Shown here one piece after another: positions 53,392-55,373 of a DNA stretch of 64,000 nucleotides. The DNA is from Bacilli bacterium. Its GTDB lineage: Bacteria > Bacillota_I > Bacilli_A > RF39 > UBA660. Location: the NCBI GenBank assembly GCA_017404555.1, contig JAFRCD010000001.1, positions 15,850 to 79,849 of the forward strand. Direction: 5' to 3'. Positions within the stretch are counted from its first letter, which is position 1. Each line of letters opens with the position of its first letter. A program made the translations under genes and the position numbers. A model generated the notes under the pieces. That model did not search any database. It was not told where the DNA came from and saw only the letters and a list, made by a program, of their open reading frames with translations.

Positions 53392-55373
53392 ATGGAAAAA
53401 GAAAGACAAAGAGTAGAAGAATTAACTAGAATACTTAATGATGCTAACTATGATTATTATGTTAATGACAATCCTAAAATTACTGACCAAGAGTTTGATA
53501 AATATTTAAGAGAATTAGAAGAAATAGAAAAAAAGTATCCTGAGTTAAAACAAGAGAATTCTCCTACTAATAGAGTTGGTGGAGAAGTAATTGATACTTT
53601 CAAAAAAGTAACTCATTCAATTCCTATGTTATCATTAAGCGATGTTTTCACCGAAGATGAATTAATTAGTTTTGATGAAAGAATTAAAAAGAAAAGATAA
53701 ATCCTAAATATGTCTGTGAATTAAAAATAGATGGACTATCAGTCTCTCTTCACTATGAAGATGGTAAACTAGTTAGAGCTGCTACTAGAGGAGATGGAGT
53801 AGTAGGAGAAGATATTACCCATAATGTTAAAACCATTAAAACAATCCCTCTTACCTTAAGCAAAAAAGTATCTATTGAAGTACGTGGTGAAATCTTCATG
53901 AACAAAGAGACTTTAAAGAAGATTAATGAAGAGAGAAAAAAAGAAGGAAAACCACTACTAGCTAATTGTCGTAATGCCGCAGCTGGTTCAATTAGACAAT
54001 TAGATTCAAAGATTGCTGCTAAAAGAAAATTAGATTGCTTTATTTATCATTTGCCTAATCCTTTGGATTATAATATTCATACACATATGGAAGCCTTAGA
54101 ATATATGAAGAGTTTAGGCTTTAAGACTAATCCTAATAATAAATTAGTAAATAATATTGATGAGGTATTAGATTTTATTACCGAAAAAGGTGAAATAAGA
54201 GCAGATCTTCCTTATGATATTGATGGTATAGTTATTAAAGTAAATAGTGTAGATGAACAACAGACTTTAGGTTATACAGCTAAATATCCTAAATGGGCAA
54301 CAGCTTATAAATTTCCAGCTGAAGAAGTTCTAACTAAATTAAAAGATATTATCTTTACAGTTGGTAGAACTGGTCAAATAACACCTAATGCTGTTTTAGA
54401 ACCAGCTATAGTAGCCGGTTCAACAGTATCACGCGCAACTCTTCATAATGAAGATAATGTTATTGAAAAAGATTTAAAAATAGGAGATATTGTCTCAATT
54501 AGAAAAGCAGGAGATGTTATACCAGAGGTAATAGAAGCCAAGAAAGAAAGAAGAACAGGTAGAGAAAAAGATTTTCAAATGATAAGTAATTGTCCAATGT
54601 GTGGAACTAAATTAACTAAAATAGAAGGACAAGTAGATTATTATTGTCTTAATAAAGATTGTCCAGCTAGAAAAGTGGAAAACCTAATTCATTTTGCTTC
54701 ACGAGATGCTATGAATATTGAAGGTTTAGGCGATAGAATAATTGAAGATTTCTATAACTTTGGTTATATTAAAACTATTCCTGATATTTACAATCTAAAA
54801 AAAGAAAAAGAGGAGTTAGAGCGATTAGAAGGTTTTGGTACAAAGTCAATTGATAATATGTTAAAGGCTATTGAAAAGTCTAAAAACAATCCTCTAGAAA
54901 AACTATTATTTGCTTTAGGAATTAAAAATGTTGGTAGTAAAACAGCTAAAATACTAGCACTTCACTATCAAACAATGGACAATTTACAAAAGGCAACTAT
55001 AGAAGAATTAACTAATATTAAAGATGTAGGATCTATTATTGCTGAGTCTTTAGTATCTTATTTAGAAGAAAACAAAGAGTTAATTGAAAAGTTAAAAGAA
55101 CTAGGATTAAATATGACTACTAGTTTAAAAGAAAGTACAGAAAAAACTATCTTTACTGATAAGACAGTAGTAGTAACTGGTTCCTTAGAAAACTATTCGC
55201 GTGAAGAGATAAAAGACCTAATAGAATCAATGGGTGGTAGTGCTACTTCTTCAGTATCTAAAAAAACTGATTTAGTAATTGTCGGTAAAGATCCTGGAAG
55301 TAAATATGATAAAGCCAAAGAATTAGGAATAGAAATTTGGAATGAAGAAAAATTGCTTGAATATTTAAAGTGA
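53392..55373 (+). pseudogene. ligA: NAD-dependent DNA ligase gene interrupted by a -1 frame change in an A-run (possible sequencing error or slippage)
   Basis: Frame 1 encodes the LigA N-terminus and ends ...FDERIKKKR* at 53698-53700. The adenylation motif ([15 protein letters not shown]) continues in frame 0 from 53688. The rest of LigA (OB fold, Zn finger CPMCGTKL...C...C, HhH, BRCT) runs to 55373. The frame switch lies within aaaaagaaaag (53686-53696). Confidence 0.7.

Follow-up and report, generated by a model that had tools for sequence, protein, structure and literature searches.

The replicative ligase LigA is essential in bacteria, and a population should therefore not come to be dominated by a true null allele of ligA. 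In the stretch of DNA that we analyzed (64,000 nucleotides, hereafter the window), ligA is split by a frame change of -1. Does this organism live with a broken ligase gene, does it decode across the break, or is a single base missing from this one assembly? The organism is an uncultured low-GC (28%) member of the gut Bacilli, a relative of 'Mycoplasma sp. CAG:877', and the window itself has a GC content of 28.4%. An earlier note on this DNA had left two explanations side by side, an error in a homopolymer and a genuine lesion rescued by slippage. Our analysis supports the first better than the second: the split in ligA most likely goes back to a slip in the sequence or the assembly, or else to a recent mutation private to this DNA, with no new biological mechanism. 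Between these, we put the probability of an artefact, or of an unrepresentative allele, in an otherwise ordinary and intact ligA at roughly 0.6.

All of the ligA coordinates given previously were confirmed from the sequence. On the + strand, a Shine-Dalgarno-like AGGTGA (53381–53386) lies 5 nt 5′ of the ATG at 53392, which opens a 5′ fragment of 102 codons (53392–53700). This reading frame reads FDERIKKKR at its end and terminates at the TAA at 53698–53700, where the earlier note had placed the end of the LigA N-terminus. The rest of the gene, including the KIDG motif, occupies the -1 frame, which contains a stop at 53685–53687, is open from 53688 and continues for 561 codons to a TGA at 55371–55373. 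The two frames thus overlap by 10 nt. From position 53680 the window reads aga att aaa aag aaa aga taa atc cta aat, with AAAAAG at 53686–53691, so the site consists of an A5 run (53686–53690) and a nearby A4 run (53692–53695). Within the overlap, the tetranucleotide A_AAG (53688–53691, + strand) is the only plausible site for a -1 slip.

The break lies inside the adenylation domain as delimited by Pfam, 12 codons upstream of the catalytic lysine codon (53724–53726). This lysine belongs to the KIDG adenylation motif (53724–53735), which is located 3′ of the break and whose counterpart in the alignment with E. coli LigA is CELKLDG. The 5′ fragment encodes domain Ia and the start of the adenylation domain, up to about position 34: PF22745 (Nlig-Ia) matches residues 8–55 with E = 3e-07 and 31.4 bits against a cutoff of 27, and the frame change divides PF01653 between residues 69–100 of the 5′ fragment (profile positions 3–34) and the 3′ fragment (profile positions 42–253). 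The 3′ part encodes the remaining adenylation domain followed by the OB fold, C4 zinc finger, HhH and BRCT modules, with PF03120, PF03119, PF12826 and PF00533 each above cutoff. All six Pfam domains are present, and the locus departs from the LigA family only in lacking one continuous reading frame, because of the -1 change at 53686–53700.

Adding one A to the first run joins the two parts into a single LigA of 660 aa. Over its whole length this protein aligns with E. coli LigA (2OWO, E = 3e-162), and it is a full member of the LigA family, with every domain present. Known members of the family include the enzymes of E. coli (2OWO), Thermus filiformis (1DGS) and Enterococcus faecalis (1TAE). 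Like the E. coli enzyme, the restored protein has domain Ia, a KxDG adenylation domain, an OB fold, a C4 zinc finger, HhH and BRCT; the window differs by the 1-nt deletion that splits the ORF 12 codons before the catalytic lysine, whereas the gene is unsplit elsewhere in the species. The restored sequence is identical at 659 of 660 residues to an intact LigA (P0001) that is present on four metagenome contigs. The claim that one base is missing from the A-run therefore holds, as the inserted A restores the gene and the alignments contain a single gap.

That gap can be placed precisely. Over window positions 48392–60373, a contig encoding P0001 is 99.983% identical to the window, with one mismatch and one gap, and the gap is six A's against the five at 53686–53690. 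We reached four assemblies of the same organism by looking up a neighboring gene of 192 aa: three from ENA, each of a different sample (ERZ28018991, ERZ28654927 and ERZ28019011), and one from Logan (run SRR12529045). All four carry A6 (AAAAAAG rather than AAAAAG), and a 660-aa ligA is called wherever the contig is long enough. They are otherwise 99.8–100% identical to the window; the Logan contig, for one, is identical over 2,242 nt apart from this base. That contig (SRR12529045_19664) ends at window position 53993, ~300 nt 3′ of the A-run and ~150 nt before a second site at which the window's ligA is unusual (54142). Its end may mark a graph branch or a drop in coverage inside ligA in that sample.

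We also examined how the rest of the window compares with its nearest contigs. Three of them tile most of its length: L082 over 5336–27117 (21,782 nt, 100.000% identity, 0 mismatches and 0 gaps), L083 over 21699–43498 (21,800 nt, 3 mismatches and 0 gaps) and L084 over 43392–64000 (20,610 nt, 1 mismatch and 1 gap). By BLAST, the A6-to-A5 change in ligA is the only indel in the 58.7 kb covered by near-identical contigs. This region contains 520 homopolymers of at least five bases, 184 of which have at least six, and none of the other 519 differs in length between window positions 5336–64000 and the near-identical contigs. The assembly is thus not riddled with homopolymer errors, and any error at ligA would be an isolated one.

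The six-base run extends to more distant relatives. A6 is found in frame in a lineage of 96% identity (two loci) and in another of 83% identity (three loci). Because both lineages share it, A6 is the ancestral state, and A5 is derived and private to the window. We then fetched 80 related genomes, from uncultured gut Bacilli, 'Mycoplasma sp. CAG:877' and similar organisms (56–72% identity), and in every one of them ligA is continuous across the break point. Among the 78 scored for run length, 34 encode the corresponding Lys-Lys pair with a run of six or seven A's in frame. In sum, a frameshifted ligA appears in 0 of 4 same-organism assemblies, 0 of 5 sister-lineage loci and 0 of 80 related genomes. 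Exact look-ups of the window's ligA fragments of 491, 102 and 105 aa gave no match in the contig collection, and a pattern scan of JGI metagenomes for either allele, A5 or A6, returned 0 matches. In the sequence as given the feature is real: an ancestral A6 run has lost one base, in the window only, within a ligA that is otherwise ordinary.

This distribution bears directly on the idea that the A-rich site is one of evolved recoding, where programmed -1 ribosomal frameshifting or slippage during transcription would be the normal route to LigA in this organism. A programmed event of this kind is effectively refuted by the lack of conservation among same-species assemblies, sister lineages and the 80 relatives, and we regard it as extremely improbable. 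Its one point of support is the AAA-AAG codon pair that adjoins the frame change. Other signs of recoding are missing: read in the zero frame, the site is AUU_AAA_AAG, and its U_AAA_AAG offers an A_AAG tetramer and no X_XXY_YYZ slippery heptamer, and inspection by eye of the 12 nt upstream (GAUGAAAGAAUU) showed no Shine-Dalgarno-like or GGAGG-like element. Downstream, a 99-nt segment folds at -15.5 kcal/mol, no better than shuffled sequence (z = -0.16), and an Rfam search over 53200–54200 gave no match at E ≤ 1. In the absence of a heptamer, a stimulator and conservation, any rescue of this allele would be unprogrammed, low-level leakiness rather than an evolved mechanism.

The comparison with dnaX makes the same distinction. 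Its -1 frameshifting uses A_AAA_AAG together with an upstream Shine-Dalgarno-like element and a downstream stem-loop, and the window shares with it the AAA-AAG lysine codon pair; ligA differs in having U_AAA_AAG with neither the stimulator, nor a stable hairpin, nor conservation. The dnaX shift, moreover, adds a shorter protein to the full-length one, and no broken gene is mended by it. Of the suggestion in the earlier note that ribosomes slip -1 at AAA-AAG, the part that survives is that the A_AAG leaves unprogrammed leakiness possible.

Its other suggestion, transcriptional slippage on the A-runs, fared worse. In bacteria such slippage has been documented on runs of ~9 nt or on long poly(A) tracts (PMC5009743). 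The A5 and A4 runs are far shorter, which makes this form of rescue not credible. The window does recall the transcriptional slippage of Buchnera and Blochmannia (cited in PMC5009743), since it too comes from an AT-rich bacterium with an apparently reduced genome and has a frameshift beside an A-run. However, the tracts in those bacteria are long (about 9–10 or more), whereas the window has runs of only 5 and 4 nt and a lesion that the species as a whole does not share.

Two further ways of reading the split gene were considered and rejected. In the downstream frame no canonical start codon occurs before the ATG at 53898–53900, which follows KIDG, so re-initiation could not give an active ligase; the resulting 491-aa product lacks positions 1–109 of the adenylation profile. 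Earlier in the frame there are only non-canonical ATA codons, with no ribosome-binding site, and a functional split protein is likewise rejected. An alternative genetic code does not explain the break either: the blocking codon is TAA, and the TGA at the end of the gene matches the end of its homologues.

We next weighed the possibility that the deletion is genuine. Taken over all its forms, a private deletion is the less favored explanation, though it is the main rival. Its most developed version supposes that replication slippage recently shortened A6 to A5 and that the allele is a leaky hypomorph, kept alive by ribosomes that slip -1 at A_AAG. Here tRNA-Lys would move from AAG (53689–53691) to AAA (53688–53690) in a small fraction of ribosomes, a slip predicted from the sequence, and the junction produced would be IKKEKI, equal to the wild-type peptide. 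Cells would survive because ligase is normally in excess. We consider this version unlikely, but it has several points in its favor. The slip site sits exactly in the permissive overlap, and its product would match wild type. In E. coli, A_AAG is among the tetramers known to be prone to -1 shifts (PMC5009743), and single-base deletions in E. coli test genes were suppressed, at an aggregate of 1–10%, by unprogrammed -1 slips (PMC10861913). The rest of the assembly is also free of indels.

Weighing on the other side, the A5 allele is found in none of the four other same-organism assemblies and in no relative, and the site has no stimulatory element by folding (z = -0.16) or Rfam. The P-site context is U_AAA and not A_AAA, so that only single-tRNA slippage would be available. 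The shiftiness of AAG further depends on a single tRNA-Lys(UUU), and no tRNA-Lys gene was found in the window or in the 48 loci scanned. Finally, a drop of ~20- to 100-fold in an essential enzyme should be selected against. The strongest form of the idea, in which A5 is the true majority allele and the cell's sole essential ligase is made only by unprogrammed -1 slippage at a bare A_AAG, strikes us as distinctly improbable.

The private substitutions in the window lend the genuine-deletion hypothesis some weight. Compared with contig k141_578029 (L083 and L084), the window has private differences at 35142, 35978, 39459 and 54142. Three are nonsynonymous G-to-A changes: R to H in a pilin-like protein (35142), E to K in Lon (35978) and R to K in LigA (54142). 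The fourth, at 39459, is intergenic, with G in the window and A in k141_578029. Position 54142 differs from two further assemblies as well; the window has A where three others have G, giving AAA (Lys) in place of AGA (Arg) in NPNN[K/R]LVNN. This change lies in ligA, 456 nt downstream of the deletion. With the deletion counted, the private coding changes number four, and ligA, a gene of 2 kb, holds two of them. By eye, the four substitutions share no surrounding motif of the kind expected from methylation-linked base-calling error. A look-up of the window's Lon allele gave no match among the collected contigs, and together with the private substitutions this suggests that the window represents a slightly different strain with real changes of its own; if the substitutions are real strain differences, the deletion could be real too. 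The absent Lon allele bears on the private substitutions and does not discriminate error from mutation.

A separate cluster of differences lies just upstream. In contig scaffold_188 (L086, positions 458–480), three mismatches occur within 23 nt, at window positions 52210, 52230 and 52232, in a gene of 243 aa upstream of ligA; elsewhere this contig matches the window at 100% identity over 21.8 kb. Recombination may have introduced the cluster as a patch, or the assemblies may differ locally.

A genuine deletion might also leave LigA dead, with no rescue by slippage. The cell would then rely on a second ligase elsewhere, or the allele would come from a non-viable or minority subpopulation. The frameshift is, after all, present in the sequence, the window covers only 64 kb of the genome, so that a second ligase (for example, an ATP-dependent one) may sit elsewhere, and co-assembly of several samples can fix minority paths (PMC8199421). 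Against this, intact ligA is kept in 80 of 80 relatives, which argues that the clade depends on it, and the gene in the window shows no further decay. The earlier note had seen no obvious ATP-dependent ligase gene in the window, and no such domain occurs among the Pfam matches of its genes. (Two short ORFs, at 289–822 and 2169–2747, have no Pfam match at all.) A dead LigA is accordingly doubtful in our view.

We return to the preferred reading, an artefact or an unrepresentative allele. Under this reading the organism's true gene would be an ordinary single-frame, NAD+-dependent DNA ligase, in which six A's (AAA AAA, the Lys-Lys of ERIKKEKI) were recorded as five in this one assembly. The base would have been lost through an error of sequencing, consensus or assembly, or because the assembler picked an unrepresentative read path. 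The missing A would split the gene on paper into a head of 102 codons and a body of 561, while the protein actually made would be the 660-aa LigA, with no special decoding. We favor this reading because A6 and an intact gene occur in every other assembly of the same organism and in every relative. The difference is confined to the length of a homopolymer and is contradicted by four independent assemblies, and ligA is otherwise undamaged, with the frameshift and one conservative R-to-K change as its only differences. Our preference for an error over a real mutation is drawn from these sequence comparisons.

Several observations count against an artefact. The window is otherwise free of indels, with none of the further miscounts in the same assembly that an error-prone platform would leave. 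When Illumina reads are put together by a de Bruijn assembler, the consensus seldom goes wrong in an A6 run. The labels of the nearest contigs (XIEF21-1_SAMN158299xx) suggest that the source is the ruminant-gut data set of Xie et al. 2021 (PMC8199421; Illumina/MEGAHIT), and such an origin, if correct, makes an artefact harder to accept.

Set beside known cases, the split ligA resembles two ordinary things: homopolymer miscounts and leaky homopolymer frameshift alleles. Error-prone long-read assemblies normally show many homopolymer errors. As in the errors of draft and metagenome-assembled genomes, a single base has changed in an A/T run, independent assemblies contradict the change and the gene is expected to be intact; the window differs in that this is 1 case in 520 homopolymers. 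As in leaky frameshift mutants and 'savior' or compensated indels (Atkins et al. 2016, PMC5009743; Springstein et al. 2024, PMC10861913), a 1-nt deletion in an A-run leaves A_AAG in the overlap; here, however, the allele is unseen in any other sample and the slippage is predicted from the sequence. No reading of the split gene makes it a new kind of system.

What the locus means depends on which explanation is correct. If the break is an artefact, the matter is one of annotation: the record for ligA should give an intact gene or one with its frameshift corrected, and a missing replicative ligase should not be held against the genome. If the deletion is real and is the majority allele, it would show how far the expression of an essential replication enzyme can fall. 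It would then also be a natural and fresh case of an essential gene living on unprogrammed slippage, of moderate interest to the recoding field and with no new mechanism, and leaky rescue, if true, could be the first step toward a compensated indel.

The window holds several other features. Its strand bias is extreme, as the long ORFs with domain support all lie on the + strand except that of a LysR-type regulator (1162–2052). A defence-like island at 3481–12191 encodes, by Pfam, a D12-class N6-adenine methyltransferase (661 aa), a restriction enzyme of the RE_AlwI family (540 aa), GmrSD (736 aa), an AAA_13 ATPase (729 aa) and two small ORFs (112 and 108 aa). Pfam matches to SpoVS (~21007–21267) and to a CotE-like protein (28395–28940) occur in what is apparently a small-genome, uncultured member of the Bacilli. 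Tandem paralogues of ~600 aa at 31699–33498 and 33584–35395 share ~84% DNA identity over 1.87 kb, and both have prepilin-type N_methyl N-termini, with a third, small N_methyl ORF at 39644–40015. At 40080–41712, a surface protein with a thioester domain (TED; 337 aa) is followed directly by a sortase (212 aa).
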